A stretch of DNA of 64,000 nt, taken from positions 3,913-67,912 of IMG/VR virus record IMGVR_UViG_3300036773_000110. One strand, 5' to 3'. The position numbers were made by a program, and so were the translations under genes. This stretch comes from a virus (Duplodnaviria > Caudoviricetes). This document shows, one piece after another, positions 24,193 to 51,269 of the stretch. A model generated the notes under the pieces. It did no database searches. It saw only the letters and a program-made list of their open reading frames with translations, and was not told the origin of the DNA. Within the stretch, counting starts at the first letter, position 1. Each line of letters begins with the position of its first letter.

Positions 24193-24203
24193 CGGCGTTC
24201 TCC

Positions 24204-25430: not shown

Positions 25431-25495
25431 GAAGACCTCCTTTAAGGTCGGTTAGACCGCCAGCGGCCTTCGCGGCTTGCCGTGCGGTGGAGAGA

Positions 25496-26074: not shown

Positions 26075-26141
26075 GCGGGGTTCCTTTCCCATTGCGGGAT
26101 GGCCGCTCGTCGTTGCGACGGCGGCCGGGTGGATGGGGTGA

Positions 26142-26954
26142 TCAGCGCCCGGTGCGCTGGGTGGGGATTGCTGCCTGGCGGGCTTCGAATGCCTGGCGGA
26201 AGGCGTTCACGACGGCCTTGCCGCTGTGGCCCTTCTTGGCGTCTTTCCACATCTGGTTGAGTTCGCGGGTTTCGTCCGGCCAGTCCTGTTTGGCCAGGCG
26301 GCGGAACATCGGCTCGGCACCGCACATGCAGTTGTCGTGATACTTCTGACCGGGGCCGCGCTCGCTGCGCACCGTCGTGCGAAGGGCGGTCTCCTCGGTC
26401 AGATACACCGGGCCGCGCGAGGCCAGCATCGCGCAGAAGTAGCAAGGCTTGGGCCCCAAAGTCCGCACGAAGCCGACGCTGCGAGTGTCGGACGCAACGG
26501 CTGTGTCGATGGCGTCCCGGCCGCCGTTGAGCACGTGCCGGGACGCGGCGCCGGAGACGCTGACGAGCGCCTGGCGCCCGATGTCCTTGAGGTCCCGGCC
26601 CAACGCGGTGTCGTGCTTGATCTTCACCGGACCGGTGACGATCAGGGATGTCCGGATCGCGTCAAGGTTCGGCCGGATCAGGTCGGCGAGATGGTCGGCG
26701 TGGAAGGCCGGGAGCCCCGTCTCCGCCGAACGGAACTTGTCGTAGTAGACCAGGGAGAGCGTCGCGGACTGCGTGCGGAAACCGATGACCAGGTCGAGAA
26801 CGAGGCTCAGCCACGATGCCGCAGTGGCATCGAGGCGCACCGGGTCGAGCAGCGGCCACACCTTGTGCAGCTCACGAAGGAACTGGGCTCGCAGCGCGAT
26901 CTGCTGCCTCCGGAGGCGTTCAGTGAGCAGCTGGCCAGGGATCGTGTCAGCCAT
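26142..26954 (-). CDS. Minor capsid / MuF-like head morphogenesis protein
   Basis: CYFCAMLASRG.VY and KYHDNCMC motifs; between portal and scaffold. Confidence 0.75.
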   Translation of the reverse strand: MADTIPGQLLTERLRRQQIALRAQFLRELHKVWPLLDPVRLDATAASWLSLVLDLVIGFRTQSATLSLVYYDKFRSAETGLPAFHADHLADLIRPNLDAIRTSLIVTGPVKIKHDTALGRDLKDIGRQALVSVSGAASRHVLNGGRDAIDTAVASDTRSVGFVRTLGPKPCYFCAMLASRGPVYLTEETALRTTVRSERGPGQKYHDNCMCGAEPMFRRLAKQDWPDETRELNQMWKDAKKGHSGKAVVNAFRQAFEARQAAIPTQRTGR

Positions 26955-26957
26955 CGT

Positions 26958-37232: not shown

Positions 37233-37509
37233 CCTGGCTTCCGCCCGACGAAATGGCGTCAGATGAAGCCGTTTCCCGGAGACACGTTCCCTGACCTGGG
37301 GAAATTAGGGTGGCCTATGTTACGAGGCAACCCAGGAAGAGGGTCAGATGCTATGCAGACCGGTCAGCATTTTCGCTGGTAGGGGGCCTCCCCCCACCTG
37401 TTTCCGCAGGTCAGAGCGTGTGTCCTTTGTGTTCTGTGGTGTGTGGACGGAAAGATCGGTTGGGTTTTCACCGGGGATCTTTCTGTCGTGTGTGGAGGGC
37501 AACGGTTGA

Positions 37510-37788
37510 TCAGGGGTCTTGGTGATCATCGATGCGTGCCGCGATCTGGGCTTTGGTGCCGTAGGTCGGTAGGCCGAGGGCTTCGGCTTGGGCTTTGAGT
37601 CCGGCGAGGGTGGCCGTGTCCGGGCCCGGGGTGTCCTCGGGTGTGGTGGTGTCCGCTGGTGCGTCTCCGGCCGTCTCAGTGGGCCGTGCGTGGCCGCGTG
37701 CGATGAGCCACCGTGCCTCGGTCTCGGATAGCTCGCGCGTGGTGCCGTGCCCGTGCTGGCCGAGCCGGTGTGTGTAGGTGACGCGCAT
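37510..37788 (-). CDS. Small protein with C-terminal SAP-like DNA-binding motif
   Basis: TLAGLKAQAEALGLPTYGTKAQIAARI matches SAP consensus L..L+..L...GL...G.K..L..RL. Confidence 0.7.
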   Translation of the reverse strand: MRVTYTHRLGQHGHGTTRELSETEARWLIARGHARPTETAGDAPADTTTPEDTPGPDTATLAGLKAQAEALGLPTYGTKAQIAARIDDHQDP

Positions 37789-37791
37789 GGC

Positions 37792-38097
37792 CTATCCCTT
37801 CTGGTCGAGTGGGTGGGGTTCGGCCGGGCGTAGGCGCGCGTGCCGTAGGGCCGTGCGTGCGTCGACCCCTTCGCGTGCGCTCTTGCGCCGATGGCAGTAG
37901 GGCGCGACGTCTTGGTGGATGGGCGCGAGGTTGGCGAGGGAGTGATCATCACCGGGCCGGATGTGGTCGACCGCGTCCGCCCCGGGCCCGTGGCAGACGT
38001 GGCACGTCCGCCGGTGGGCGTGCATCACGTAGGGCACGATGCGGGCTGCCCAGTCGGCGGGGAGGCGTGCGTTACGGTCCGAGTGTTCCCAAGCCAT
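37792..38097 (-). CDS. HNH endonuclease, packaging-associated type
   Basis: CHVC, AVDHI, HSLANL, CHRRKSAREG. Confidence 0.85.
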   Translation of the reverse strand: MAWEHSDRNARLPADWAARIVPYVMHAHRRTCHVCHGPGADAVDHIRPGDDHSLANLAPIHQDVAPYCHRRKSAREGVDARTALRHARLRPAEPHPLDQKG

Positions 38098-38524
38098 GGC
38101 CGTTGACCTGCGGTTTCCTTGTTGATCAGTAAACGTTCGATAACGGCCGTGCGTGTTCTGCAACGCTCACGGGTCCAGGTTCGACATAGTCAGCGTTAGA
38201 CAACTTCACAGCAGGCCGAACGGCCACCGGGCAGGCAACCGACAAGCGCGCCGCCCCTACGGCCAGGACCCCCGCAGAAGACGTCTCACAGCACGCCTGA
38301 TCCTTGAGAACTAAATAGCGAGAGTGAAGCGGCCTACTCAGTGACCGCAGTGACCTAGCACTGATATCCGTCACCGAACGACGACGAGTCGACGTCACGC
38401 CTGATGGTTGCCGATAAGCGGTTTCCGGGGTCGAGGTTCTACCTCCCCCGCCGCGAGCACACGGGCGCCCGACACGAGTCGCGGAGTGCGCTAGGGACAA
38501 CGGGATTCACAACGTTTCACGGTG

Positions 38525-38572
38525 GGGCGCGACTTCTGCGCGCCCTCTCCGTGTCCGTTGTGGACAGGAGAG
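38525..38572 (+). repeat. Twin-hairpin element R1
   Basis: GGGCGCG/CGCGCCC then TGTCC-GTTGT-GGACA; stem extends CTCTCC/GGAGAG. Confidence 0.65.
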
Positions 38573-38582
38573 AGGGGTAGTC

Positions 38583-38681
38583 ATGATCGAGAGTGTCAGA
38601 GTGCGGCTCATTCTGTGGGCGCTCACCGTGACCCTGGTGTTCGCGGGGGCAGTGGCCGTTCAGTACTTGTTCACGCACTAG
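38583..38681 (+). CDS. 32-aa single-TM peptide (cassette 1)
   Basis: MIESVRVRLILWALTVTLVFAGAVAVQYLFTH behind R1 and RBS; not in ORF track. Confidence 0.55.
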   Translation: MIESVRVRLILWALTVTLVFAGAVAVQYLFTH

Positions 38682-38705
38682 AGGTTGGCAACGCGCAACG
38701 GTGCA

Positions 38706-38746
38706 GTACGGGCCTTGTCCGTACCGTGCCGTGTCCGTTGTGGACA
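38706..38746 (+). repeat. Twin-hairpin element R2
   Basis: GTACGG/CCGTAC, spacer CGTGCCG, TGTCC-GTTGT-GGACA. Confidence 0.7.
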
Positions 38747-38761
38747 GAGGAAAGGAATGCT

Positions 38762-39190
38762 ATGCAGCGCATCACCGGTAAGGTCATCCGACACGTCAGC
38801 AACGCGGACCGGCGGTACCACGTCCGGCATTACAACGAGTCCAGCGACACGTACACGCTGGAATCCTTGGACGGGAAGCACAAGGGGGCGGTATCGGCCG
38901 TTCACGTGCACCCTGTCTCATACGAGGTTTACGGGCCGGACGGCTGGACTCCCCTGGGGGACGCCAAACTCCCCGTGTGGACGCACGAAGAGCCCCACTG
39001 GTGGGGCCCGATTGAGTGCGACGGGCTCTTTCTCTTGTTCGACACGTCCGCGCACGTGAACGACGGCGTGCCGTCCGTAACCGTAGAAGAGGCAGTGGAG
39101 CACGTCACCGGGTGCGCGAAGTGCAACGAGCTGGACATGCGCATCACGGTCGACGGTGAGGGACTGGGGACGGTCGAGAACGTTTCCTAG
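38762..39190 (+). CDS. Hypothetical protein (cassette 2)
   Basis: GAGGAAAGG RBS; MQRITGKVIRHV... Confidence 0.7.
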   Translation: MQRITGKVIRHVSNADRRYHVRHYNESSDTYTLESLDGKHKGAVSAVHVHPVSYEVYGPDGWTPLGDAKLPVWTHEEPHWWGPIECDGLFLLFDTSAHVNDGVPSVTVEEAVEHVTGCAKCNELDMRITVDGEGLGTVENVS

Positions 39191-39202
39191 CCGCTTTGGT
39201 GA

Positions 39203-39241
39203 CGCGCGGGGACCCGCGCGTGCGCCATGGCCGCTAGGTCA
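39203..39241 (+). repeat. Twin-hairpin element R3
   Basis: CGCGCGG/CCGCGCG, TGCGCCA, TGGCC-GCTA-GGTCA. Confidence 0.75.
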
Positions 39242-39260
39242 GCAAAGGAAGGGAAACCCC

Positions 39261-39599
39261 ATGGAAATCTCAATGACTGCGCATCGTGTGGCGTCGCACG
39301 TGTTCGACTACTGCGCCACGCGCTTTGACGACGCGGTCAAGTACTCCGTGTGCTACGGCGGAACGCATCCGCTCAGCCCCGGCGAGAACGGTGTCACCAT
39401 CGGCGACGTAGCGCGGCATTACGGCTCACGCTTCTGGTGGGCCACGTCGGACACCGGCGACGCGGACACACTCCGGTGGTTCGGGCCGTTCACCTCGCGC
39501 AAGGAAGCCTCCGTGTTCCTGGTGGGCGCACGGATCGAACGGGACATGCCCGCACGGTCAACCATTCAGGGCGTAGTGCGCGAGCTTCGCTCCGCGTGA
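39261..39599 (+). CDS. Hypothetical protein (cassette 3)
   Basis: AAGGAAGGG RBS; MEISMTAHRV... Confidence 0.7.
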   Translation: MEISMTAHRVASHVFDYCATRFDDAVKYSVCYGGTHPLSPGENGVTIGDVARHYGSRFWWATSDTGDADTLRWFGPFTSRKEASVFLVGARIERDMPARSTIQGVVRELRSA

Positions 39600-39621
39600 G
39601 TAGGGCTAGCGCTTTCGGTGG

Positions 39622-39660
39622 CGCGCAAGAGATTGCGCGTGTGCCGTGACCGCTAGGTCA
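39622..39660 (+). repeat. Twin-hairpin element R4
   Basis: CGCGCAA/TTGCGCG, TGTGCCG, TGACC-GCTA-GGTCA. Confidence 0.8.
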
Positions 39661-39687
39661 ACGATCCCCTAGGGAACGAGGGACGCA

Positions 39688-40023
39688 ATGAGCCGATACA
39701 GGATCACCACGCACACCACTGCCTACGGCCCGTGGGGCGAAGAGATGGACGAGCCTCCGAAGCTGGGCACCGAGTCCGAAGATCACGAGTTCGACACGCT
39801 CCGCGAAGTCGCCGACTACCTGGAAAGCGAGGGACTTTCTCAGCCGTCGCAGGACCCCGGGCCGTACAACCTGCACACGTGGATGACCCTGCCGGACGGT
39901 TCGCGCCCGCACGGCAGTCACGGGAACTACACGGGCGAGACCGAAGAGATGAGCGCTCACCAGGCGGACGGGTTCACCGAACGCACGTGGAACGCGGTTC
40001 TCCGGGTCGTAGTGGGCAAGTAG
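39688..40023 (+). CDS. Hypothetical acidic protein (cassette 4)
   Basis: GAGGG RBS; 111 aa. Confidence 0.7.
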   Translation: MSRYRITTHTTAYGPWGEEMDEPPKLGTESEDHEFDTLREVADYLESEGLSQPSQDPGPYNLHTWMTLPDGSRPHGSHGNYTGETEEMSAHQADGFTERTWNAVLRVVVGK

Positions 40024-40042
40024 CCCGTGTTCCATCGGTGGT

Positions 40043-40084
40043 CACCGTCCCACGTGGACGGTGGTTGCCGTGACCACACGGTCA
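40043..40084 (+). repeat. Twin-hairpin element R5
   Basis: CACCGTCC-CACGT-GGACGGTG, TGACC-ACAC-GGTCA. Confidence 0.85.
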
Positions 40085-40105
40085 AGCAAGGGAAGAGAGG
40101 GCAAC

Positions 40106-40300
40106 ATGGTCGGCTACGTCAAGCGTCCGCGCGTCGGCGACAAGATCGGGAGTCTGTTCGGTGTTGTCGAGGTTCGGGAAGTTCGGGAATGTGGGCGCGT
40201 TCTCGCCGTGCGCACGAGGGTGCACGGTGAGCGCATCCGACTTGAAAGGGCCACGCGCGGAACCTACGTGCGCTACCACCCGGAAACTCCGATCGGGTAA
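40106..40300 (+). CDS. Small basic beta-rich protein (cassette 5)
   Basis: GAGAGG RBS; MVGYVKRPRVGDKIG... Confidence 0.65.
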   Translation: MVGYVKRPRVGDKIGSLFGVVEVREVRECGRVLAVRTRVHGERIRLERATRGTYVRYHPETPIG

Positions 40301-40321
40301 CCCGAGCGTGCGCCATCGGTG

Positions 40322-40366
40322 GGGAGCGTCCCGTGTGGACGTTCCCGCGCCGTGACCGCATGGTCA
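40322..40366 (+). repeat. Twin-hairpin element R6
   Basis: GGGAGCGTCC-CGTGT-GGACGTTCCC, TGACC-GCAT-GGTCA. Confidence 0.85.
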
Positions 40367-40383
40367 ACCGAAAGGAAGTAAGC

Positions 40384-40707
40384 ATGAGTGACAGCAAGCC
40401 GGAGAGGCGCCGTACCGGCCCGGCGCTCGACGCGCCGGAGGGCTACGAATACACCCCCGCATCGGCGGAGGTTCACCGGGCTCTAGCCGCCCGTTTCGAG
40501 CGCGCCGCGCCGTGCTCGATTCACCCGGGCAAGCCGGGCTACGTGCTGTACGACGTGGGCAACTGGTGGGACGGCGCATCGGAAGTCAAGGACAACGGCG
40601 ACGGGTCCTACTCCTACACCGACCCCTACAGCGGCCACGCGGACCGGTTCGACGCGGATGGGTACTGGACTGCGGACGGCGAGTACAAGCGGCGGTCGAG
40701 CTACTGA
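40384..40707 (+). CDS. Hypothetical protein (cassette 6)
   Basis: AAAGGAAG RBS; Tyr/Asp/Gly-rich C-terminus. Confidence 0.7.
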   Translation: MSDSKPERRRTGPALDAPEGYEYTPASAEVHRALAARFERAAPCSIHPGKPGYVLYDVGNWWDGASEVKDNGDGSYSYTDPYSGHADRFDADGYWTADGEYKRRSSY

Positions 40708-40728
40708 GCGCCCGTGTGCCATCGGTCG

Positions 40729-40772
40729 CGTCCGTCCACCGTGTACGGACGTCGGCCGTCACCACATGGTGA
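40729..40772 (+). repeat. Twin-hairpin element R7
   Basis: CGTCCGT/ACGGACG, TCACC-ACAT-GGTGA (compensatory change). Confidence 0.85.
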
Positions 40773-40792
40773 ACCCGAGAGGAGAGGCAGTC

Positions 40793-41059
40793 ATGCCCAA
40801 GGAGATCAGCGAGAAACTCGCCCGCGAAACCATGGCTCTGGTGGTCCAACGGTTCCGGGGTGAGGTAGCCGACGTCGACACCTATGGCCCGACGCTCCAG
40901 GAGCCCGGCGAACAGTGCCCCGGGTGGGCGATTGTGTGGGAGGACGGGGCTCCGGAGGACTGGGCGGTGCGCGCGTTCGCCGACGGCAAGACCAACGCAC
41001 CGGCGGGAGTGTTCGCGGAACCGGCGAATCACTTGTGTATCGGCCTGTACCCCGCGTGA
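40793..41059 (+). CDS. Hypothetical protein (cassette 7)
   Basis: AGGAGAGG RBS; GWAIVWEDG.PEDW. Confidence 0.7.
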   Translation: MPKEISEKLARETMALVVQRFRGEVADVDTYGPTLQEPGEQCPGWAIVWEDGAPEDWAVRAFADGKTNAPAGVFAEPANHLCIGLYPA

Positions 41060-41067
41060 TCAGCGGT

Positions 41068-41112
41068 CGTTACCGTCCCGCGTGGACGGTGGCGTCCGTG
41101 ACCGCACGGTCA
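41068..41112 (+). repeat. Twin-hairpin element R8
   Basis: CGTTACCGTCC-CGCGT-GGACGGTGGCG, TGACC-GCAC-GGTCA. Confidence 0.85.
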
Positions 41113-41134
41113 AATGAAACGAAGGGAGCAGGGC

Positions 41135-41365
41135 ATGGCTATGACGCTGGACAAGCTGACCACCGTGAAGAGCGGCCGAGCGTACCGCGCGGTGATCAGC
41201 GGGACCGTCCACTTTTTCGAGGTGGACCAGGACAACACGGGTGTGTTCGTCCGCACGCTTGCGAGAACGCTGGGCGGCTACCGACTGGACAGGTTCGGTG
41301 ACGGACTCTCGCCGACCACGCTCCGCGCGTTCCTGCTGGACTCGTGGCGGGTGTCCGTTGCCTAG
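41135..41365 (+). CDS. Hypothetical protein (cassette 8a)
   Basis: AAGGGAG RBS; MAMTLDKLTTVKSG... Confidence 0.65.
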   Translation: MAMTLDKLTTVKSGRAYRAVISGTVHFFEVDQDNTGVFVRTLARTLGGYRLDRFGDGLSPTTLRAFLLDSWRVSVA

Positions 41366-41618
41366 CCCGGAGACGGTGACCGTGTGGGCGGACGGCTACG
41401 GCCGGTTCGGCGCACGGGTTACGTTCCCGGCCGCGTACGGACCGGCTGAGTTGGCCGCTGCGCGTCGCCGGGTGCGCCGGAAGGCCAGGCGTCGCATCCG
41501 GCAGGCGCTCGCGCTCAGGGGTGCGTGCGGCCCCGGGTGGCGGTGCCGAGTGGTCCCGCTCGACACGGCGACCGATGAGCACGGCGGCACGCTCTCTGTG
41601 GCCTACCGGGAGCGGTGA
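41358..41618 (+). CDS. Arg-rich hypothetical protein (cassette 8b)
   Basis: TTG start overlapping upstream stop; no repeat in front. Confidence 0.5.
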   Translation: MPSPETVTVWADGYGRFGARVTFPAAYGPAELAAARRRVRRKARRRIRQALALRGACGPGWRCRVVPLDTATDEHGGTLSVAYRER

Positions 41619-41621
41619 GGC

Positions 41622-41810
41622 ATGGCGGAGCGTGACGAACGACTAGACCGGCTCGCCATCGGATCGAACTGTCACCGATGCGGCGCGGGTGCGGACGACC
41701 AGTGCCGTACGCCTAGCGGCAAGGTCACCAAACCGCACCGTAGGCGGATTGACCGTGCGGTTAGTCAGTACCTCGCACGGCGCCGACAGCAGACCGACGC
41801 GGACAACTAG
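41622..41810 (+). CDS. Small phage zinc-finger protein (cassette 8c)
   Basis: CHRCGAGADDQC...PHRRR; GTGAGG RBS. Confidence 0.7.
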   Translation: MAERDERLDRLAIGSNCHRCGAGADDQCRTPSGKVTKPHRRRIDRAVSQYLARRRQQTDADN

Positions 41811-41827
41811 CCCGTGAGCCATCCGTG

Positions 41828-41872
41828 GGGAACGTCCACTCCGGACGTTCCCGCGCGGTGACCACACGGTCA
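41828..41872 (+). repeat. Twin-hairpin element R9
   Basis: GGGAACGTCC-ACTCC-GGACGTTCCC, TGACC-ACAC-GGTCA. Confidence 0.85.
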
Positions 41873-41893
41873 AACGAGAGAGGCGGGCAGGAA

Positions 41894-42271
41894 ATGGGAA
41901 AGATCACCCCGACGGACACGCACGACACGTTCATGGGCTCCGGCGCGCTCAGCTACGCGTGGTGGCTCATCACGGAAACCACGGGCAGCGACCTTGACCC
42001 CGCCGACGACTGGACCGTCACGGTGCGGGAGTACGACCCCGACCACGACAAGGAAGGCGACAAGCTGACCACGTTCGACCACAAGGCGCTGACCGAGGCC
42101 GTCAACACCCTGGCACGTACGGCGGAGGACAAGAAACCCAAAGGAATGCATCCCGCCGTCCTCCGCGAGTGCCGCACGTTCATCGCGGACCCGGAAGACG
42201 CCGACTTCGACGCCGATGCGGCCGACCAGGTCATGCAGTATGTGGCGTTCGGAGAGGTGGTCTACGGCTGA
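41894..42271 (+). CDS. Hypothetical acidic protein (cassette 9)
   Basis: Ends DFDADAADQVMQYVAFGEVVYG. Confidence 0.7.
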   Translation: MGKITPTDTHDTFMGSGALSYAWWLITETTGSDLDPADDWTVTVREYDPDHDKEGDKLTTFDHKALTEAVNTLARTAEDKKPKGMHPAVLRECRTFIADPEDADFDADAADQVMQYVAFGEVVYG

Positions 42272-42295
42272 CACGCCCGCACGTGACATCGGCGA

Positions 42296-42341
42296 GGCAC
42301 GGTCCACAGTGGAACGTGCCGACGCCGTGACCGTACGGTCA
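42296..42341 (+). repeat. Twin-hairpin element R10
   Basis: GGCACGgTCC-ACAGT-GGAaCGTGCC, TGACC-GTAC-GGTCA. Confidence 0.85.
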
Positions 42342-42362
42342 AATGAAACGAAGGGAACGAAC

Positions 42363-42698
42363 ATGACTGACGACTTCTGGGCCACGATTCGCGCGCAGCT
42401 CAAAGAGCTGGAGACCGCCAAGAACGCCGACGACGTGGCCCGCATTCTGGCGCACGAACGGAACCCGTACGGCCCGGAATGGGACGGCGCGGCGGGCGGC
42501 ACGGTCGGATTCTTCGCCGGTAGCGGCGGAGACAACACGGTGGCGAACGCCCTGGAAACGGCAGGGTGGGACTACGTGTGGGCGGCGGCGTCCTATCACT
42601 ACTGCATGAAAGCCTCGGACGGATCGATGATCACCTACGTGGAGGGTGACATCTACGCCGGGAACCCCGCCAACCAGCGGCCCAGCACGTCCGTGTGA
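42363..42698 (+). CDS. Hypothetical protein (cassette 10)
   Basis: AAGGGA RBS; GWDYVW...YHYCM...ITYVEGDIY. Confidence 0.7.
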   Translation: MTDDFWATIRAQLKELETAKNADDVARILAHERNPYGPEWDGAAGGTVGFFAGSGGDNTVANALETAGWDYVWAAASYHYCMKASDGSMITYVEGDIYAGNPANQRPSTSV

Positions 42699-42705
42699 CC
42701 GCTTT

Positions 42706-42778
42706 CGCGCCTGTCCGCTGTTCGGTCATGACAGAACACCGAACACTGTGGACGGTCGCGGGCGTGGCCGCACGGCCA
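42706..42778 (+). repeat. Twin-hairpin element R11 (expanded first hairpin)
   Basis: CGCG.CTGTCC/GGACGG.CGCG enclosing TGTTCGGT/ACCGAACA; TGGCC-GCAC-GGCCA. Confidence 0.75.
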
Positions 42779-42802
42779 ACTCAGGACGATGAAAGGTCGC
42801 TC

Positions 42803-43033
42803 ATGAAGACCATCCCCAGGAATCACACGCGCAAGGTTGCCGATGTCAAGGAGCGCACGACGCGCTGTGTGGTGTTCAGTCTCGCGAACGACTTCGCACC
42901 CAAGGAGTGCGCGCCCTCGATCGCGTGGGAGCAGCTCGAAAAGTACAGCTTTGCAAGACTTGTCGAACATGACGACAAATGGAGCGTGAACATCCACGGG
43001 AACCTTTGGTACGAGCTGAGGACCGCGTCATAA
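42803..43033 (+). CDS. Hypothetical protein (cassette 11)
   Basis: GAAAGG RBS; VNIHGNLWYEL. Confidence 0.65.
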   Translation: MKTIPRNHTRKVADVKERTTRCVVFSLANDFAPKECAPSIAWEQLEKYSFARLVEHDDKWSVNIHGNLWYELRTAS

Positions 43034-43052
43034 AGTCCGTGCTGACATGGTG

Positions 43053-43097
43053 GCGGCCGTCCCTTGTGGACGGCTGTACGCCACGGCTGCACGGCCG
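43053..43097 (+). repeat. Twin-hairpin element R12
   Basis: GCGGCCGTCC-CTTGT-GGACGGCTGT, CGGCT-GCAC-GGCCG. Confidence 0.8.
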
Positions 43098-43122
43098 GAA
43101 CCCCAAGTGAGAGGAACTGAAC

Positions 43123-43782
43123 ATGAGAAGCACGTGGAATGACCGCGTTGTCGACACGGCCGAGGTCACCGTCTGGGCACGCGACGTATTCGCCAACCCG
43201 GAGTGCGCCGACGACTGGGTGAGGAACACGCTGGTGGCCGGAGTGGTCCTCCGGTCGACCTGGCCAGAGTTCGCCACGCTGGCGCCGTGGGCTGAGAACG
43301 TGATCCGGCGAAGCGACCTCGCGGGCGATCGGGCGTACAACCTGCTGGCCGCGCAGCTGGTGATCACCGAGGGCGTGCTGTTCTCACCGGGCAGACCGCA
43401 GTTCGAGGCGCGCGGTCCGAGTGAACCGGAGAAGGCCGGGGACATCGGCGGGGACTACCAGACCGGGGAGGCGTACTCCAGGCGCTTCGCGGCGAGACTG
43501 GACGCCGAGCACTGGGCCGTCGTCACGGTCCAGTACTACATCGGCCTGGCCAGCTACTCCGACGAGACGCCGACGCTGTGGCGCCAGGACGAGTACATCC
43601 TGTGCACCGACCCCGACCACCCCTGTGACAGCGAGGTTCGGTCGGACCAACGGGACTACGAGGTGCCGGATGTCATGCCGTGCGAGGATGACGCGTTCGA
43701 CAACTGCGCCGACTTCCCGCCCGACGCTGTCCTGTGGCTCGACAGTGTTTCAGACGGACTGATCAAACACGAGGCCGTATGA
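43123..43782 (+). CDS. Hypothetical acidic protein (cassette 12)
   Basis: GAGAGGA RBS; 219 aa. Confidence 0.7.
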   Translation: MRSTWNDRVVDTAEVTVWARDVFANPECADDWVRNTLVAGVVLRSTWPEFATLAPWAENVIRRSDLAGDRAYNLLAAQLVITEGVLFSPGRPQFEARGPSEPEKAGDIGGDYQTGEAYSRRFAARLDAEHWAVVTVQYYIGLASYSDETPTLWRQDEYILCTDPDHPCDSEVRSDQRDYEVPDVMPCEDDAFDNCADFPPDAVLWLDSVSDGLIKHEAV

Positions 43783-43800
43783 ACCGCGCTGCGCATGGTG

Positions 43801-43845
43801 GCGGCCGTCCACTTGGGACGGCCGTGCGCCACGGCCGCACGGCCG
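43801..43845 (+). repeat. Twin-hairpin element R13
   Basis: GCGGCCGTCC-ACTTG-GGACGGCCGT, CGGCC-GCAC-GGCCG. Confidence 0.8.
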
Positions 43846-43865
43846 AGGAAGGAAGGAGGTGGGAC

Positions 43866-44708
43866 GTGAGCGAAAAGCCGACGAAGACCGGGGTCAGCGC
43901 GGCCATGCTCCGGATGATGGAGCAGGTAGCGCGAGGAGAGGTGATCACCAAGCGGCCGACGATGCAGGCGCTGATTCGGCGTGGTCTGGTCGAGGCGGCG
44001 TGGGACGGGGCTGTGGTGTGCTGGATGCACCCGTCCCTGACGGAGGCCGGTGAGGCTGCCGTGGGCGCGGAGCGGCTCGCCGAGATCGCTGCCGAGGTGG
44101 CCGCTGCGCGTGTTGCGGAGCAAGAGGAACGCGACCGGCGGGCAGCGGCAGACAAGGAGCGCGCGGAGCGCCTGGCGAGCGCGCCCGCGCCGCCGTCGAG
44201 AGCCGAGCGTCCTCGGGTCGTGGCTTCGCGGGTGTCGGGGCAGCTGAAGCGGGCCGGGTGGAATCCGGGGTATCAGGACAAGGACGTGGACGGCCTGCAA
44301 ATCCACCAGGTTCAGAACTACGAGGTCCGCGCCACGTTCCGCCGCTCCGACCATCCCTCGGCGGACCTTGCGGAGACCGCCGACGAGCTGGTGCGCACCT
44401 TGCGCTGGCTCGGGTACACGGCTGAGATCTCGGGTGAGCCGAGCACGACCCGGGCCAGCGTGCGCGTCACGCTCGGGTCGCGTGTGGAGCGCACTCAGCA
44501 CTCATTCGAGAAATGCCCGCTGTGTGACCGGCCTCGGCAGCCGCTGCTGAAGGTCCGGGATGGCGTGTGGGTCTTCTCAACCCACAAGTGGCTGGACCGG
44601 GTCACGCCTTGTGAGGGCTCGCGCCTGACGCCCGAGCAGGCCCAGGCCATGGCCGACGGTCGCGCCCCCAGCCCCGGGCATCGGCTGACGGCAGAGCAAG
44701 ACCGGTGA
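43866..44708 (+). CDS. Hypothetical multi-domain protein (cassette 13): winged-helix-like N-terminus, C-terminal Cys/His zinc motif
   Basis: AGGAGG RBS; TMQALIRRGLV...LTEAG; CPLC...H...C. Confidence 0.7.
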   Translation: MSEKPTKTGVSAAMLRMMEQVARGEVITKRPTMQALIRRGLVEAAWDGAVVCWMHPSLTEAGEAAVGAERLAEIAAEVAAARVAEQEERDRRAAADKERAERLASAPAPPSRAERPRVVASRVSGQLKRAGWNPGYQDKDVDGLQIHQVQNYEVRATFRRSDHPSADLAETADELVRTLRWLGYTAEISGEPSTTRASVRVTLGSRVERTQHSFEKCPLCDRPRQPLLKVRDGVWVFSTHKWLDRVTPCEGSRLTPEQAQAMADGRAPSPGHRLTAEQDR

Positions 44709-44750
44709 CCGTCCTAACAGGATGAATGCAACGAACGAAGGAGGAGGAAA

Positions 44751-44966
44751 GTGGTACGGAGTAGCAACGACCCGGACAAGAAGTATCCCGAACTGACGGC
44801 CGGTGAAGTCCAGGATTGCGCGGTGGAGGTCAACTGGAACAAGCGAATGCTCCTGGAGAGCCGCCGACAGACCGTGGTCCTGACGGAGATCCGGGATCTC
44901 CTCCAGGGCAACGACGGCAAGCTGGAGCAGATCCGCGAGCACTTCGAGAACTGGGTGGTTCAGTGA
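44751..44966 (+). CDS. Hypothetical protein
   Basis: AGGAGGAGG RBS. Confidence 0.65.
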   Translation: MVRSSNDPDKKYPELTAGEVQDCAVEVNWNKRMLLESRRQTVVLTEIRDLLQGNDGKLEQIREHFENWVVQ

Positions 44967-45556
44967 AGGGCGGCGCGACCGAGGCGGCGGAGCCGAACCT
45001 GACCGAGCTTCAGCGGACTGTGCTGCTGGCCATGGCGGGTCATGGCGGCACGTGGCCGGAGAGTTCAGGGGGCGGGCGGTGGAACTGGAACAACGTATCC
45101 GGAACCCGGCAAATCATGGAGGCACTAAGGAAGAAGGGAGCCGTCGAGCACGTCGAGCACGTCGGGTTCGACAGGTACGAGATGTCGCCCGTCGGGTGGG
45201 CGCTGGCCAAGAAGGGAACGCAAGGAGACGCAACGTCAGCCCAGGCAGCTGAGACAGCCATCGGTAAGCCGCGAGTTCACCGCCAGGACACCCACGAGCT
45301 GAACGCGGACATCGTCAAGGGGCCCATTGCCCAGGATGCCAACGGCCACGAGTTCCGCATTGACCACGTCTACGTCAGGTGGACTCGCGTGGACGGGAAG
45401 TGGTGGAGCCTCTGGGATTGCAACCTTGCAGGGCCCCGCATCCTCAAGTCCGGCAAGGAGTCGGAGACCCTGCGGGGCAAGTGGGAGGTTAGAGAAGAGA
45501 CGATTCCGGACTGGCTGGCACCGTGGCTGAAGGAGAACGGACCCCCGGCGAGCTGA
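44963..45556 (+). CDS. Hypothetical protein with winged-helix-like N-terminus
   Basis: LTELQRTVLLAM...TRQIMEALRKKGAVE...YEMSPVG; GTGA overlap. Confidence 0.6.
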   Translation: MKGGATEAAEPNLTELQRTVLLAMAGHGGTWPESSGGGRWNWNNVSGTRQIMEALRKKGAVEHVEHVGFDRYEMSPVGWALAKKGTQGDATSAQAAETAIGKPRVHRQDTHELNADIVKGPIAQDANGHEFRIDHVYVRWTRVDGKWWSLWDCNLAGPRILKSGKESETLRGKWEVREETIPDWLAPWLKENGPPAS

Positions 45557-45560
45557 CCGA

Positions 45561-46295
45561 GTGTTCCGGTTCCGGCGCGCACCCTGTCCGGGGTGCGGGT
45601 CCGGTGTCGGCGCAGTCACCGAACAGCGAGGGAGAAGCCTGTTGTCTATCAAGGGATTTCGGGTCGCGGGGAATGTCTTGACGTTCTTCGATGGCACTGA
45701 CCATGCCGTGGAGGCAAGGAAGCCGTACAACCCCGAGGAGGACGAGCGGGTGACGCTGCTGCGGCATCTGTTCGGTCTGAAGCCTCGGAGTGACGACGCG
45801 GTGTGGGTCACGGGCCTGACGGCCGGGGAACTCGATCTTCTTGCGGAGATGGCGGAGAACCTCGCCGACGTCGCCAACGGGAACAGGACGATGGAGCCGA
45901 GCGAGCGGGGTGAGCTTCTGGCCGCGCGCGCCGTGATGAAGAACTGCGCGAAGCTACGTGACAGCGCGCCGACAGTGTCCAGAATCGTCCCGACGGCGGA
46001 GCCGGAGCGAGTACCGGAGCCGGTCGAGCTTGACCCGCTCGTGGAACTGCTCCGCCTGGCGGACAAGTCCTATTCGGAGGCCCACGATGCGGCGTCCCGC
46101 GCCGGGGAGCTGCGGCAAGCGATCCGCCGTTCGAGGGACGAGAAAATCGCGCAGCTCGCGCATCTTTCACCGGCTCCTACGAACGAGCAACTCGGGGCGA
46201 TGTTCGATATCGACCCTTCGCAGGTCAGCCGCATAATTTCTGCGCAAACGCGACGAAATTCCGGACGCTCCGATGTCAACCTCCAGATGGGCTAG
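45561..46295 (+). CDS. Protein with C-terminal HTH
   Basis: TNEQLGAMFDIDPSQVSRIIS; start uncertain (possibly TTG near 45642). Confidence 0.65.
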   Translation: MFRFRRAPCPGCGSGVGAVTEQRGRSLLSIKGFRVAGNVLTFFDGTDHAVEARKPYNPEEDERVTLLRHLFGLKPRSDDAVWVTGLTAGELDLLAEMAENLADVANGNRTMEPSERGELLAARAVMKNCAKLRDSAPTVSRIVPTAEPERVPEPVELDPLVELLRLADKSYSEAHDAASRAGELRQAIRRSRDEKIAQLAHLSPAPTNEQLGAMFDIDPSQVSRIISAQTRRNSGRSDVNLQMG

Positions 46296-46529
46296 CCCAA
46301 CCGGGGCGGCGCCGCGACGCAGGCGAAACCACGGAACGTAGCCACTGAACATCACTGAAATGGACCAGTGCTTTACGGTAGAAATTTCCGAGATGAGCCC
46401 TTAGCGTCGCTATGCATGTTGCAACGTGACGCGACTCACTGCGACTAGTGCGGTAGGGCGTGACGCGGGGAGCGGGCCGGGGGTGGAGTCCGAACCTGTT
46501 GTGCAACAACGAGAAATACGAGAATTGGA

Positions 46530-47078
46530 GTGCTCATGACGGCAGTCGCCGTGGAAACCCATTACCCGACCGAAGAGCGGATTCGTTTCGTAGGTCAGAA
46601 ACTGGCCAAGCGCATGAAGGATGGCGGCATGACGTACGGGCTGCTGGCCGACGATTGGGGCGTCAGCGTGGGAACCGTGCGGAACGCGTTCTACTGGCCC
46701 ACGCCGAAGACTGTCCCTCCGGCGGATCGGATTGAGGCAACCGAAAAGGCTCTCGATCTGCCGCCTGACACGTTGCTTGACCAGTACTACGTGGAGCGCA
46801 TCAATCCGGCCTACTGGAACGGGGAGCCGGAGCCGGAGCCGGAGCAGCCGACGAAGCCGGGTAGGAAGAAGACGAGCGCCGCCTTGAGCATGGCCCCGCC
46901 GCCGAAGGCGCAGCCCGTCATCGTCGTCCCGCCGGTCCCGGAAGACGCGCTCGCGAGCCCGCTGCGGCGGCGCCTGATGCAGCTGGAGCACGTCCTGGTC
47001 GGCTTGGCTCCGCTGATCGCGGACGCGGCCGGGGTGGACGCTGACCAGCTCATCGCCGACATGGGCATCAAGGACTAG
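46530..47078 (+). CDS. XRE/Cro-like HTH regulator
   Basis: GMTYGLLADDWGVSVGTVRNA...IEATEKALDLPPDTL. Confidence 0.7.
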   Translation: MLMTAVAVETHYPTEERIRFVGQKLAKRMKDGGMTYGLLADDWGVSVGTVRNAFYWPTPKTVPPADRIEATEKALDLPPDTLLDQYYVERINPAYWNGEPEPEPEQPTKPGRKKTSAALSMAPPPKAQPVIVVPPVPEDALASPLRRRLMQLEHVLVGLAPLIADAAGVDADQLIADMGIKD

Positions 47079-47086
47079 GAGTCACA

Positions 47087-47419
47087 GTGAGAGTCTTGCT
47101 GTTTCTCGCGACGTTGTCGGTGATCGTGTGGTGCATCGTCGGAGCGGCGCTGACGCCGGACATGGTGACGGTGTCCGGCGAGGCTTGGGCTTCGTGCGAG
47201 ACCCTGGCGGGACGCCTGACGCCGACAGTGTCCGATGAGGACGGCAGGGCGCTCGGTGGTTCAGCCCGGATGAGTACGACCCAGGCGGGCGGCCGGTGCG
47301 TCGGCCGGTTCGACGTGTCGGGTGTTCCGGAGCGTGACCGGTATGTCGTCGCGGTGGGCCCGATGTCGGCTCCCGTGCCTCGGGGTGCGGTCGCCACGGT
47401 CGAGCTGTCCGGCAGCTAG
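47087..47419 (+). CDS. Exported or membrane-anchored small protein
   Basis: Hydrophobic N-terminus; two Cys. Confidence 0.55.
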   Translation: MRVLLFLATLSVIVWCIVGAALTPDMVTVSGEAWASCETLAGRLTPTVSDEDGRALGGSARMSTTQAGGRCVGRFDVSGVPERDRYVVAVGPMSAPVPRGAVATVELSGS

Positions 47420-47420
47420 G

Positions 47421-47594
47421 TCAATCGAGATCTTCTCCGGGGAGCACTGACCACGATGGACGCGACGGGCGGAAGCCCAGTTCGAACTGACCTCCGCTTG
47501 CCGCTCCCGTCTCGTCGTCCTGCTCTTCGGGCTCGGGTCCGCGCAGCTCGATGGAGAGCAGTTCCGTCCCCAGCACGGTGATCGTGAACCTCAT
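47421..47594 (-). CDS. Small hypothetical protein
   Basis: MRFTITVLGTELLSIEL... Confidence 0.4.
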   Translation of the reverse strand: MRFTITVLGTELLSIELRGPEPEEQDDETGAASGGQFELGFRPSRPSWSVLPGEDLD

Positions 47595-47626
47595 ATGGCA
47601 TTCGCAACTTCGAGGGAGTGGAAGAC

Positions 47627-48076
47627 ATGGCGCAGTCACCGTCCAAGGTGGACGAGACCGATGTTGATGCGTATCTGGAGGAGTACCCGGTGTTCCGGCT
47701 CTGCCGTGCGCGTCGCCACCGGTGGCCCGATCCTGTGACCAGTGTCCGAGACATCAGCGGGACGTGGGACAGGGTCCTGGACGCGGAGCCTGGGGAGCCG
47801 AACGCAATCCTCATGGTCGAGTGTGAGCGCAGATGTGGGTGCACGTTGATCAAGCTCGGGATGGCGGACCTGAAGGCCCAGACGTTCGAGGTTGTAGACG
47901 TGCGGCTGCTGTACCCCGATGACTACCTGGTGAAGGGCACTCGGATCGTGCCCGCACAGGCCGAGGCGTCGCTTGCGCTGTCGCACTTCCAGCTCTTGGC
48001 CGAGCGGGACAAGCCGAGGAAGGCTCCAGCGGCTCAGGCCAAGAAGGGGTCCCCTCGTCTGCGGGCTGTGGTCTGA
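47627..48076 (+). CDS. Hypothetical protein with Cys/His motifs
   Basis: LCRARRHRWP, CERRCGC; GGAG RBS. Confidence 0.65.
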   Translation: MAQSPSKVDETDVDAYLEEYPVFRLCRARRHRWPDPVTSVRDISGTWDRVLDAEPGEPNAILMVECERRCGCTLIKLGMADLKAQTFEVVDVRLLYPDDYLVKGTRIVPAQAEASLALSHFQLLAERDKPRKAPAAQAKKGSPRLRAVV

Positions 48077-48077
48077 C

Positions 48078-48311
48078 ATGGCCGAAGGCGAGTTCAGCCA
48101 CCGCCGAAGATCCCATTCGAACCTGGTGGCCGCGTTGCTGCGGGGGGCCGAGCTGCCCGGCAGGGTCGAGACGCCGTCGCGTTCGGACGGAGGCGTGACG
48201 ACCGTGCGGGAGTTCGAGGCGGCGAGCGCCGCCGAGGTGGAGGAGATCGTGCGCGTGGGCCTGGTCGGCTTCGCTCGCGTGGAGTTGGTCCTGGCGATCA
48301 CCTGGGCCTGA
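48078..48311 (+). CDS. Hypothetical protein
   Basis: ATG directly after upstream stop. Confidence 0.5.
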   Translation: MAEGEFSHRRRSHSNLVAALLRGAELPGRVETPSRSDGGVTTVREFEAASAAEVEEIVRVGLVGFARVELVLAITWA

Positions 48312-48474
48312 GAGGGGAAGCCGGGCGATTTTGCGCAGGGAGTACCTGGGCGAAACCGTACCATCGTGCACACCGCTGCGCATCGCCCGGCCCTCGGATT
48401 TTCCTAGCTGCGGAAGCTGTTTCCGTCTTACCGAGTCGCATTTCGTTGCAATTCATTGCGGTTGGAGGTTCGTC

Positions 48475-48762
48475 GTGCCCGAAAGCGACGACCCGCTGAA
48501 GCGCACGGAGCCTCGGGTACGTTGGCTGCGCGCCATTGCCCGACGGGAGTTCTGGTGTGTGCTGATGCCCACGGCGCGCGGGCCGAGGTGGTTCCCGGCC
48601 GGAGTGCCGGGGGCGGCCGACACGTGGTTGTTGCGGGAGGCGGTCACCGACATGTGGACCTCAGTGCGCACCACGGAGGCCGTGATCGGGAGGCCGTACC
48701 CGATGAAGCTGACCGCCGTCGGCGTGGCCCGGTTGCGTGAGTGGTGGCCGCCGGACCTATGA
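48475..48762 (+). CDS. Hypothetical protein
   Basis: GGAGG RBS; ends MKLTAVGVARLREW. Confidence 0.55.
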   Translation: MPESDDPLKRTEPRVRWLRAIARREFWCVLMPTARGPRWFPAGVPGAADTWLLREAVTDMWTSVRTTEAVIGRPYPMKLTAVGVARLREWWPPDL

Positions 48763-48855
48763 CTTGCCGGGTGTCCTGACACACCCGGCTGCCCTGGTGG
48801 CGCCCGGTTCCCACAGGGGGGCACCGGGCGCCCCTCTACTCGAACGGATCGACCC

Positions 48856-49656
48856 ATGAACCTGTCCGACCTGTCGCCGAACTTCGTCGTCGTCGCTGGC
48901 GATTGGCACCGGAACCTTCGCTGTAGCACCGCTGTGGCCGCCCGCCTGCCGGTGCTGCTGCCGGACGAGATGCCGCGCGTAGTGGTGCACGTCGGAGATT
49001 TCGGCATCGCGACCAACCAATATGGACAGGAGTACCTGACCACCTTGACGCGCGCGCTGGCCGACGTGGACGCCTACTTGCTGTTCGTGGACGGCAACCA
49101 CGAGAACCATGCTTTCCTGCGCGAGCTGGCGAAAGGACACGCCGACGGGGAGCCGGTCGAGGTCACCAAACGAATCTGGTGGCTGCCGCGCGCCATCCGG
49201 TGGAGCTGGCACGGGAACGCGTGGCTGGGCCTCGGGGGCGCGGTGTCGGTGGACCGCGTGTTCCTCCGCCTCGGCGTCGAGTGGTGGCCGGAGGAGGAGA
49301 TCAGCGACGCCGAGGCCGCCGCCGCCGCGCAGGGCGGCCACGCTGATGTCATGGTGTGCCACGACCGGCCCGCTTTCGCGCCGCTCGTGCTGCCCCCTCC
49401 ACCGTCCGCGTGGCGGCAGGGCGATCTTCTCCGGTCGGAGATGCACCGCCAGCGCCTCCAGGCGGTGACGGAGCACGTGAAGCCTCGGCTCCTGGTGCAC
49501 GGGCACTACCACTACGAAGACGACACGGTGATCTCCGCGCCGTGGGGGCAGCTCCACGTGACCGGCCTCGACCGCGACGGCGGCCCGGGGGCGAACGTCC
49601 GCGTCCTGAACGCGCGGACGCTGGCGTGGGTCCGGCCCGAGCGGAAAGCGGCATGA
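48856..49656 (+). CDS. Calcineurin-like metallophosphoesterase
   Basis: GDWH, GDFG, GNHE, CHD and HGHYH motifs. Confidence 0.9.
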   Translation: MNLSDLSPNFVVVAGDWHRNLRCSTAVAARLPVLLPDEMPRVVVHVGDFGIATNQYGQEYLTTLTRALADVDAYLLFVDGNHENHAFLRELAKGHADGEPVEVTKRIWWLPRAIRWSWHGNAWLGLGGAVSVDRVFLRLGVEWWPEEEISDAEAAAAAQGGHADVMVCHDRPAFAPLVLPPPPSAWRQGDLLRSEMHRQRLQAVTEHVKPRLLVHGHYHYEDDTVISAPWGQLHVTGLDRDGGPGANVRVLNARTLAWVRPERKAA

Positions 49657-50069: not shown

Positions 50070-50456
50070 CTACCTCTGGGCCTTGCTGAGCCTCTGGCGG
50101 CGCTGGGCGGTGACGAAGTCGCGGAGGTCGGCGACGCGGTAGCGCGGGCCGTCCGGTGTCTCGACGACGGGCAGGCCCTTCTCCCGCCACGCATAGATGG
50201 TCCGCCGGGCCACGCGCATCTCTTCGGCCGCCAGATCGGCGGTGAGCAGGTCCAGGGGTTCGTGGGTGCTCACGGCCGGGAGGACCCACGTTTGGCCGAC
50301 AGCGGCCATCTTGGCGTCCATCTCGGTGCACACGTCGGGAGCTGCCGTCTGGAGCGCCTGCCGGTATGCCTGCGCGACACGGCGGGCACGGTCCAATGTG
50401 GTGTCGGCGGCCCAGGGCCACACCCCGAGCCGGCTGTTGATCACAGGTTTGGTCAT
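50070..50456 (-). CDS. MerR/HTH_17-type DNA-binding protein
   Basis: LLTADLAAEEMRVARRTIYAWREKGL...RYRVADL. Confidence 0.75.
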   Translation of the reverse strand: MTKPVINSRLGVWPWAADTTLDRARRVAQAYRQALQTAAPDVCTEMDAKMAAVGQTWVLPAVSTHEPLDLLTADLAAEEMRVARRTIYAWREKGLPVVETPDGPRYRVADLRDFVTAQRRQRLSKAQR

Positions 50457-51160
50457 GCGACGTTCAGCTGCCGGTCGGTCAGGGCGAGGCACAGGGTTTC
50501 GTACTCGGACCAGGTGTAGCGGCGGGCGCAGTCGCGGCACTCGATCAGCTCGCTGCCGTCTTCGCGTTCGAGCGCCATCGCTTCGCAGCGGGGGCATGGG
50601 ACGGGGAGCTGGTGCACGAGGCGGGTCTGCCCGAGGAACAGCCGCGCCTTGTGGCGCAGGCGGAGCATCTCCAGGGCCCCGTCCAGGCCGTCGCGGGAGA
50701 CGAGGACGCGGCGCCCGTACTCCCACCGGATGTGTTTCTCGTCGCGCAACGCCAGGAACGCTGACGGTGCGCCGGACAGGAGCGTGCAGGCGCGGTCGAG
50801 GTGCCAGCCGGGCCGGACGCGGCCGATGACCCGCCACTGGTGGTTGAGGACTGCGGCGACGCTGCCCGCCCACAGGCCGGTCTCGGTGACCATCTCTCGT
50901 TGGAGGGCTTCGACGTGCGGGCGCAGCGGGATCGGGAGTTCGCGGGTCATGCGAACCGGCTCCCCGCCGACCGTGGAGCCCTTCCCGATGATCAGGTTGA
51001 GCAAGGTGTAGTCGGCGGGGAGATCGACGATCGCGCGTGCGACGTGGCGCGCGCAGGTGTCGCACAACCCGGTGGCGGGGTTGATGTGCTTCCCGACCGT
51101 GCGGCCATCCACTTTTTCGTGGTCGGCGCAGTATTCCGCGCGGTAGCATCGATGTTCCAT
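50453..51160 (-). CDS. Zinc-finger protein, candidate late-gene regulator
   Basis: N-terminal C..C..C..C and C-terminal CPRC...CRDC; position at end of early operon. Confidence 0.6.
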   Translation of the reverse strand: MEHRCYRAEYCADHEKVDGRTVGKHINPATGLCDTCARHVARAIVDLPADYTLLNLIIGKGSTVGGEPVRMTRELPIPLRPHVEALQREMVTETGLWAGSVAAVLNHQWRVIGRVRPGWHLDRACTLLSGAPSAFLALRDEKHIRWEYGRRVLVSRDGLDGALEMLRLRHKARLFLGQTRLVHQLPVPCPRCEAMALEREDGSELIECRDCARRYTWSEYETLCLALTDRQLNVA

Positions 51161-51269
51161 TTCGCCCTCTTCCAGATTCGGGTAGCGTCGAACCTGATCG
51201 GACGTCGTATGGCTGCGCTTCCTGTCGAGAGGCTCCCCGGCTAGCACGGGGAGCCTCTTCTATGTGCGG

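Follow-up and report, generated by a model that had tools for sequence, protein, structure and literature searches.

The stretch of DNA considered here (the window) comprises 64,000 nucleotides, bases 3913-67912 of a 67.9-kb IMG/VR virus record (IMGVR_UViG_3300036773_000110) that is rated 99% complete, and is a temperate siphovirus-type prophage of Amycolatopsis. It carries an array of 13 gene cassettes, each headed by a copy of the same intergenic element (R1 to R13, Table 1; positions are those of the window). The elements are structured RNAs that act in cis, and all lie in a single block of co-oriented genes that lack promoters of their own. That 13 such elements occur at these places had been proposed from the letters alone (the original prediction), and reading the sequence and aligning the 13 gaps confirmed it.

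The gaps that hold the elements are about 85-105 nt long, untranslated and GC-rich. The 5' edge of an element lies 0-27 nt past the previous stop codon and its 3' edge 13-24 nt before the next start codon. R1 is the exception to the after-stop placement, as it follows a non-coding block of about 180 nt. The same arrangement, with an R1-type element directly after this block, opens the array in the window, in Amycolatopsis kentuckyensis and in a distant viral contig (G001), and the R1 type is conserved in the last two with covariation in its stem. On the + strand from 43849 to 49656, that is, after the last cassette, no covariance-model match was found. Since the first copy follows a non-coding block and there is none after the last cassette or among the open reading frames (ORFs) downstream of it, the element heads each unit.

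The element is about 57 nt long and consists of an interrupted stem-loop of 12-15 bp (helices P1 and P2), a 5-bp hairpin (P3) that follows without a linker, and a purine-rich ribosome-binding site (RBS). The consensus of 56 copies is cCaU-[CGGUG]-[GsGnnCG-UCC]-N5-[GG-ACGnnCsC]-bulge-[CGCCG]-[UGRCC]-RCAC-[GGYCA]-A. All 13 window copies fold singly into this two-hairpin shape, with a P3 loop of 4-5 nt, at -26 to -42 kcal/mol and z values of -2.6 to -6.7. P1, the P2 tip (CGUCC/GGACG) and the P3 stem with its RCAC loop are conserved in sequence, and the middle and loop of P2 vary freely. The outer helix P1 (CGGUG/CGCCG), which encloses P2, carries a conserved U:G wobble. RNAalifold recovers P1 independently (three copies have U:A in place of C:G, and one has C:G in place of G:C), and it also finds P3 with compensatory changes.

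These folds revise the original prediction in several details. Its first hairpin is real, but was put at 6-11 bp when it has 12-15, because P1 encloses the predicted core. The GYGCCR-like spacer that it placed between the hairpins is the 3' strand of P1, so the hairpins have no spacer. The compensatory variants that it listed for the second hairpin are genuine, but the near-invariance claimed for the inner CC/GG of P3 holds for one C:G pair only (55 of 56 copies), and the second inner C:G pair is often U:G. An alternative register for this hairpin, CCGUG/CACGG, was rejected by eye: R1, R2, R3, R4 and R7 support only UGRCC/GGYCA. One copy, R11, has its first hairpin enlarged to about 26 pairs (42700-42765, -42.2 kcal/mol) with the junction and P3 kept, which looks like an insertion inside the stem.

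A covariance model was built from the 13 window copies. It gave exactly 13 matches in the 67.9-kb record, all on the + strand, at 35-71 bits; the next best match, at 22.7 bits, is the antisense side of an element, and background was at most 16 bits. Among the 13 copies 86% of alignment cells were paired (slid controls, 34-42%), 11 of the 20 pairs changed on both sides, and the covariation score was 0.32 against 0.14 for shuffles, the counts being of cells and not of independent events. For larger sets, whose alignments were fitted to the model, the values were 91% paired (slid controls, 32-47%), 16 of 20 pairs and 0.45 against 0.16 with 36 copies, and 91.5% (29-49%), 16 of 20 and 0.43 against 0.15 with 62 copies. 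None of 500 shuffles reached the observed score in any of the three sets, and at several P2 positions each of the four Watson-Crick pair types occurs. The MAFFT alignment of the 13 copies and the single-sequence folds give the same answer as the model-fitted alignments.

Because G:U pairs far exceed A:C mismatches (63 to 7), selection on the fold acts on the sense strand, in the simplest view at the level of mRNA. Of 62 copies, 45 retain the U:G of P1 and nine have C:G in its place. The antisense strand has far lower model scores and folds more weakly, both as RNA (13 of 13 copies) and as DNA (four of four tested). The covariation in 56-62 copies from six loci and the 63:7 ratio support the earlier suggestion that selection acts on a structure rather than on an operator sequence only; the enlarged alignment that had been proposed as a check on it shows the covariation too.

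Table 1. Elements, cassettes and other features of the window
Feature	Position	Strand	Model score (bits)	Details	Next ORF
R1	38516-38568	+	37.8	Fold -27.6 kcal/mol; P3 UGUCC-N5-GGACA	38583-38681 (32 aa)
R2	38695-38748	+	34.9	Fold z = -4.0	38762-39190
R3	39193-39244	+	43.8	P1 variant UGG/CCA; G:U in P3	39261-39599
R4	39612-39663	+	44.3		39688-40023
R5	40032-40087	+	62.5	P1 and P2 form 15 contiguous pairs, 4 of them G:U	40106-40300
R6	40313-40369	+	71.5		40384-40707
R7	40719-40775	+	61.5	P3 variant UCACC/GGUGA	40793-41059
R8	41060-41115	+	58.5	Begins directly after stop codon	Three-ORF cassette 41135-41810
R9	41819-41875	+	65.4	P1 CCGUG/CGCGG (compensatory)	41894-42271
R10	42286-42344	+	50.8	Fold z = -4.8; P1 CGGCG/CGCCG	42363-42698
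R11	42700-42781 (model core 42726-42781)	+	47.2	P3 UGGCC/GGCCA	42803-43033
R12	43044-43100	+	57.9	P3 CGGCU/GGCCG with U:G	43123-43782
R13	43792-43848	+	64.4	P3 CGGCC/GGCCG	43866-44708 (last cassette)
13 cassettes	38583-44708	+		15 ORFs of 32-280 aa with high GC at third codon positions; co-oriented, almost all without known family	
Conserved non-coding block	38330-38506	+		About 180 nt; directly before R1, between HNH gene and array	
Element-free ORF stretch	44751-49656	+		After the array; includes metallophosphoesterase (48856-49653)	
GH25 lysin	7295-8452	-			
2336-aa ORF		-		At tape-measure position	
P22-type coat protein		-			
SPP1-type portal		-			
HNH endonuclease	37792-38160	-			
ERF, RusA and ParB-like proteins		-		Right of the array	
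DNA-binding protein gene	50453-51244	-		Match to phrog_1568 ('DNA binding protein')	
Tyrosine integrase	62338-63705	-		About 18 kb from the array	

A pattern scan of viral contigs, combined with the model, found arrays in two more records: the 78.5-kb contig G001 (about 13 copies) and a 60.6-kb provirus, G002 (about 10 copies). Scanning species-representative genomes added arrays in four Amycolatopsis genomes, those of A. kentuckyensis, A. dendrobii (the same provirus as G002), sp. NPDC021455 and sp. cmx-4-37. Whole-genome model scans found one locus per 10-12 Mb genome. Carriers of any copy numbered two of 151 sampled Pseudonocardiaceae genomes and five of 147 Amycolatopsis species genomes. 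Single or double copies, also between a stop codon and the next RBS, are present in two further genomes and in an Actinokineospora metagenome-assembled genome, where the copy sits after a homolog of the gene in cassette 4 of the window.

The array of cmx-4-37 (G004:C12:244001-276000, in a record flagged UNVERIFIED_CONTAM) has at least nine elements. It is flanked on one side by Replic_Relax, type IV secretion coupling-protein and VirB4/TraG-like genes and on the other by a BTAD regulator and a T2SSE ATPase, and transcription of its cassettes runs towards the relaxase-like gene, an arrangement also seen in plasmid leading regions. An SPP1-type portal (Pfam PF05133) was not found anywhere in this genome. 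Because of these conjugation-gene flanks and the lack of a portal, the array seems to lie in a conjugative-element-like locus and not in a phage of the present type. The family is confined to mobile-element loci, and the cmx-4-37 case suggests that it crosses the boundary between phages and conjugative elements.

Elements and cargo have had different fates in these loci. Between the window record and G002 the structural proteins are 75-87% identical in amino acid sequence, and the arrays share about one cassette. Nucleotide similarity between arrays is confined more or less to the elements, with 96 high-scoring segment pairs (HSPs) of under 140 nt against 32 longer ones, most of which cover a shared gene. 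Certain element subtypes reach 91-96% identity between loci in which the single cassette gene in common is about 70% identical. R3 and R9 are 96% and 94% identical, respectively, to single copies in cmx-4-37, R4 is 90% identical to one A. kentuckyensis copy, and R6 matches a copy at the cmx-4-37 locus with 95.8% identity over 72 nt although the flanking genes are unrelated. Cassette families recur in different orders and combinations across the arrays. The comparison of related prophages for gain, loss and reordering of cassettes, also put forward as a check, yielded near-total turnover of cargo and differing orders. Within the window, R8 and R10 are identical from P3 to the RBS, GGTCAAATGAAACGAAGGGA (41098-41130 and 42327-42359), but have unlike P2 helices, a sign of crossovers inside elements. 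Of the ends of gene-bearing homology blocks, 26% lie no more than 12 nt from an element, where 10.5% would be expected (p ~5e-6).

Several familiar kinds of sequence were considered and set aside. The element is neither a housekeeping promoter nor an intrinsic terminator: P1/P2 and then P3 are followed by a purine-rich tract, with no box and no U-tract. There is no conserved TANNNT in the gaps (three of 13, at non-homologous positions), no -35/-10-like box in or beside the stems and no T-run longer than three in the gaps. The 3' flank is 60-84% purine, T makes up a fraction of 0.04-0.20 of the last 25 nt, and a consensus scan gave no promoter-like or terminator-like site in the gaps. A host repeat of the repetitive extragenic palindrome or bacterial interspersed mosaic element type (REP/BIME) is excluded by there being one locus per genome, in a single orientation and not scattered both ways. 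Mimicry of CRISPR repeats, an idea taken from PMC10651486, is unlikely, as whole-genome model scans of the hosts match the mobile-element locus only. Translational coupling was rejected because masking the 5' half of the element gave no consistent change in accessibility of the Shine-Dalgarno (SD) sequence or the start codon. A scan of positions 37500-46000 against Rfam at E values up to 10 returned four chance-level matches only (E 0.8-8.7). The literature searched gave no prior description of the two-hairpin fold, its Amycolatopsis distribution or its RNA covariation, and the family is absent from Rfam.

Repeated intergenic elements that bound variable early genes are already known, among them the promoter early stem-loops (PeSLs) of T4-type phages, the SAS (start-associated sequences) of actinophages with their extended form, ESAS, and the RNase III sites of T7. 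A PeSL joins a sigma-70 early promoter to a terminator-like stem-loop and is a proposed point of homologous exchange (PMC2839356, PMC4122927). PeSLs, too, are short conserved motifs that flank variable orphan ORFs in hyperplastic regions and bound replacements and indels, and the present elements mark, like PeSLs, the edges of ORFs by whose replacement or insertion related phages differ; they differ in having neither a -10/-35 box nor a U-tract, and in showing RNA-type covariation. SAS and ESAS occur in Cluster K mycobacteriophages and Cluster EF Microbacterium phages, where their function is unknown (PMC3203893, PMC7302621). They share with the elements a place in long gaps of actinophage genomes just before start codons, a single orientation, 10-19 copies, an inverted-repeat character and persistence across relatives even ahead of unrelated genes. 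The sequences, however, are unrelated: the 13-bp SAS GGGATAGGAGCCC has one match in the window with two mismatches, at 26078 outside the block, where about 1.7 are expected by chance. Moreover, the Cluster K ESAS are 17-bp imperfect inverted repeats that are reported to lack compensatory changes, with little support for an mRNA hairpin (PMC3203893), whereas 16 of the 20 pairs of the present element change on both sides.

Of the three roles that the original prediction offered, an RNA-level module fits best. The reading that we prefer, though we hold it tentatively and at somewhat less than even confidence, is that the elements punctuate a polycistronic early transcript for processing, stability or insulation and also serve as a homology patch for cassette exchange. 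The two hairpins form a dumbbell, at or beside which the transcript would be cleaved by an endoribonuclease of the host (RNase III, or RNase E/J next to the fold), and the stable hairpins would then cap and protect the message ends. The hairpins would also keep each purine-rich RBS free of the upstream gene, so that every cassette could be expressed whatever its neighbors. At the DNA level, the same repeated stretch of about 57-90 nt, since it recurs at every junction and is common to different mobile elements, could act as a homology patch at which recombination (by the phage ERF and RusA, for example) would swap, add or delete cassettes; recombination at the elements would account for the almost complete exchange of cargo among close relatives.

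The closest functional analog, which the original prediction did not mention, would be the T7 early region. There, according to what Dunn and Studier reportedly described in 1983, RNase III sites R0.3-R1.3 precede each of the five early messages, and the elements would punctuate an early mRNA in the manner of these five sites. Both the T7/T3 sites (R0.3, R0.5, R1, R1.1 and R1.3) and the present elements are conserved irregular hairpins before each early message, including the first; both lie between stop codon and RBS, without promoters or terminators between the genes, and both go with small genes for host takeover, placed to one side of the genome. In sequence they are not similar, and the present host is a high-GC actinomycete and the phage temperate.

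Several points weigh against this reading of the elements as punctuation. The nuclease step is pure inference. Both helix ends of the dumbbell are capped and its flanks leave from the middle, unlike T7 R1.1 with its lower stem formed from the flanks. P1, the P2 tip and P3 are strongly conserved in sequence, which suggests a specific binding partner; neither an RNase of general kind nor an insulator would require this. Masking the 5' half of the element, to mimic a terminating ribosome, changed the predicted accessibility of the SD sequence inconsistently, and both DNA strands can fold too. Finally, the enrichment of block ends at elements carries little weight as proof that they are a recombination substrate, because viable junctions must fall between genes and HSPs run into similar neighboring elements.

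A specific protein, encoded by the phage, a conjugative element or the host, might instead bind the element, or the element might act directly on RNA polymerase or Rho, in antitermination of the put or nut type, in anti-polarity or as a shared translational operator, so that the array would be switched or read through as a unit. We regard this as possible but rather improbable. Such a partner would fit with the constancy in sequence of P1, of the tip of P2 and of P3 with its loop, next to a P2 middle and loop that are free to vary, and a conserved U:G wobble is a typical recognition feature. The put RNA of phage HK022 consists of two adjacent stem-loops, spans about 60-70 nt and acts in cis on the nascent transcript; the element likewise has two adjacent stem-loops, with a 0-1 nt linker and a similar total length (about 57-65 nt), and untranslated GC-rich gaps would be expected to invite Rho. 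However, put occurs once per early operon, just behind the promoter, as put and nut sites generally stand once per operon and not before every gene, whereas here there are 13 per operon, one before each cassette. Nor are terminators visible in the gaps for an antitermination signal to overcome, and a co-occurrence search for the cognate protein gave no protein family common to all six array loci. The distance of 13-34 nt from P3 to the start codon argues against direct occlusion of the RBS. Much less probable still is that the elements are unconventional promoters (hairpin or single-stranded DNA promoters like Frpo or those of N4, or, as at the early promoters of phiC31, sites at which a phage-specific factor acts), which would make each cassette a transcription unit of its own. 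In favor of such promoters, those of the phiC31 early region are organized as repeated conserved intergenic elements, visible in its genome: the gaps within 21750-36250 of AJ006589 hold CCCGGGTTGCCGACTCCCTTAC about nine times and the palindrome CCTACTCACGTGAGTAGG several times. Furthermore, one array adjoins conjugation genes, and plasmid leading regions use hairpin promoters in single-stranded DNA (PMC11541004). But Frpo has its -35/-10 boxes in the stem (PMC11541004), whereas no such boxes occur in or beside the present stems, and the better-folding strand is the sense strand, which cannot be the template; the role of single-stranded DNA or cruciform promoter in the original prediction is disfavored on both counts. 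The phiC31 early promoters and conserved inverted repeat (CIR) operators are, respectively, a linear motif of about 22 bp and a near-perfect 18-bp palindrome, almost unvarying and different in sequence from the element, and the covariance model had no match in the phiC31 genome (best score 15 bits). A Pfam search of the giant ORF at the tape-measure position, the single ORF searched in this respect, gave zero matches and hence no polymerase domain.

The remaining explanation, which we think unlikely, is that the elements are primarily DNA recombination joints, either PeSL-like homology patches or attC-like hairpins in single-stranded DNA, and that the RNA fold is incidental. Cargo turns over almost wholly between close relatives, cassette order differs and the elements persist; homology-block ends are enriched at elements; the same subtypes, up to 96% identical, flank unrelated genes in prophages and in the conjugative-element-like locus; and both strands are able to form single-stranded DNA hairpins. 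There are also parallels with integrons, namely co-oriented promoterless cassettes, structured sites of at least about 57 nt whose structure is better conserved than their sequence, strand-biased folding and fast turnover of cargo. Pure homology patches, however, need no compensation, yet 16 of 20 pairs covary; the 63:7 bias points to the transcribed sense strand; and the tight placement from stop codon to RBS, in one orientation, is what an expression signal would show. An integron proper is ruled out, as the integrase is a generic tyrosine recombinase that scores 28.6 bits against the TIGR02249 (IntI) cutoff of 265. The attC cores (R'' RYYYAAC and R' GTTRRRY) are not in the 56-copy consensus, there is no attI/Pc, and the site has two hairpins where attC has one, heads its cassette rather than trailing it and folds best on the mRNA strand. 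An integron-like site-specific system, as the original prediction had considered, is therefore not supported, but the mosaic comparisons would allow for a weaker form of it, in which homologous exchange takes place at the elements as at the PeSLs of T4.

A broader and more speculative idea, which we doubt but think worth stating, is that the dumbbell may be a portable 'expression joint' read by a dedicated factor (an endoribonuclease, or a protein that binds RNA polymerase or the ribosome) and common to Pseudonocardiaceae phages and conjugative elements as a means of handling swappable arrays of genes expressed on entry. If so, it would be an RNA-level counterpart of integron attC or of the plasmid leading-region system, in which one 57-nt unit would both secure the expression of any new gene and supply the homology for acquiring one. 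Repeats at actinophage early genes (SAS/ESAS and the motifs of Clusters EC, EF and EG) have lacked a mechanism in the 15 years since they became known; the Amycolatopsis family is the first of that kind in which we see clear strand-specific RNA covariation, and it offers a defined fold to mutate. It links the expression of arrays of orphan host-takeover or anti-defense genes with their rapid reshuffling. Should the element prove to be a context-independent intercistronic insulator or processing site, it could find use as a part in the engineering of operons for high-GC actinomycetes.

The cassette genes themselves, all co-oriented on the + strand, have almost no recognizable relatives, in keeping with their earlier description as orphans. 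Among 14 of the 15 block ORFs (from 38762 on, the 32-aa first ORF 38583-38681 being left out), Pfam gave one match above cutoff, Phage_zn_bind_8 at 41622-41807, and one below it, DUF1816 at 39261-39596. Twelve block ORFs searched against PHROGs gave two matches, at 40793-41056 and 41894-42268, each to a family of unknown function. When the block was compared by BLAST with 50,697 phage records, the element had no match and there was one 105-nt coding match, in Streptomyces phage Ponzi; a scan for tRNA and tmRNA found none. Cassette 8 consists of three ORFs (41135-41365, 41376-41618 and 41622-41810) behind one leading element, with none between them; the middle ORF has homologs in two other arrays.

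The array (38583-44708) and the genes that follow it to 49656 are on the + strand between two - strand blocks. The statement that the block is transcribed opposite to the rest of the phage is correct for the structural and replication genes, all of which are on the - strand, but not for a 151-aa ORF adjoining the integrase (61460-61915), a second + strand exception. The downstream stretch 44751-49656 is 67% identical to A. kentuckyensis over 2 kb of nucleotide sequence. Because these ORFs are element-free and much better conserved among relatives than the array, the elements mark only the hypervariable part.

The non-coding block before R1 is 80-92% identical in the A. kentuckyensis prophage and 85% identical in the distant contig G001, with flanking genes that differ between these loci; a pattern scan for the block found it only in G001. 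Its folding z score of +0.46 does not support a structured leader RNA, and it is a candidate array promoter or leader, late promoter, or cos/packaging site. The DNA-binding protein gene at 50453-51244 is the last of the leftward early operon, directly after RusA, and is kept in four of five related loci; its position recalls that of a late-gene regulator.

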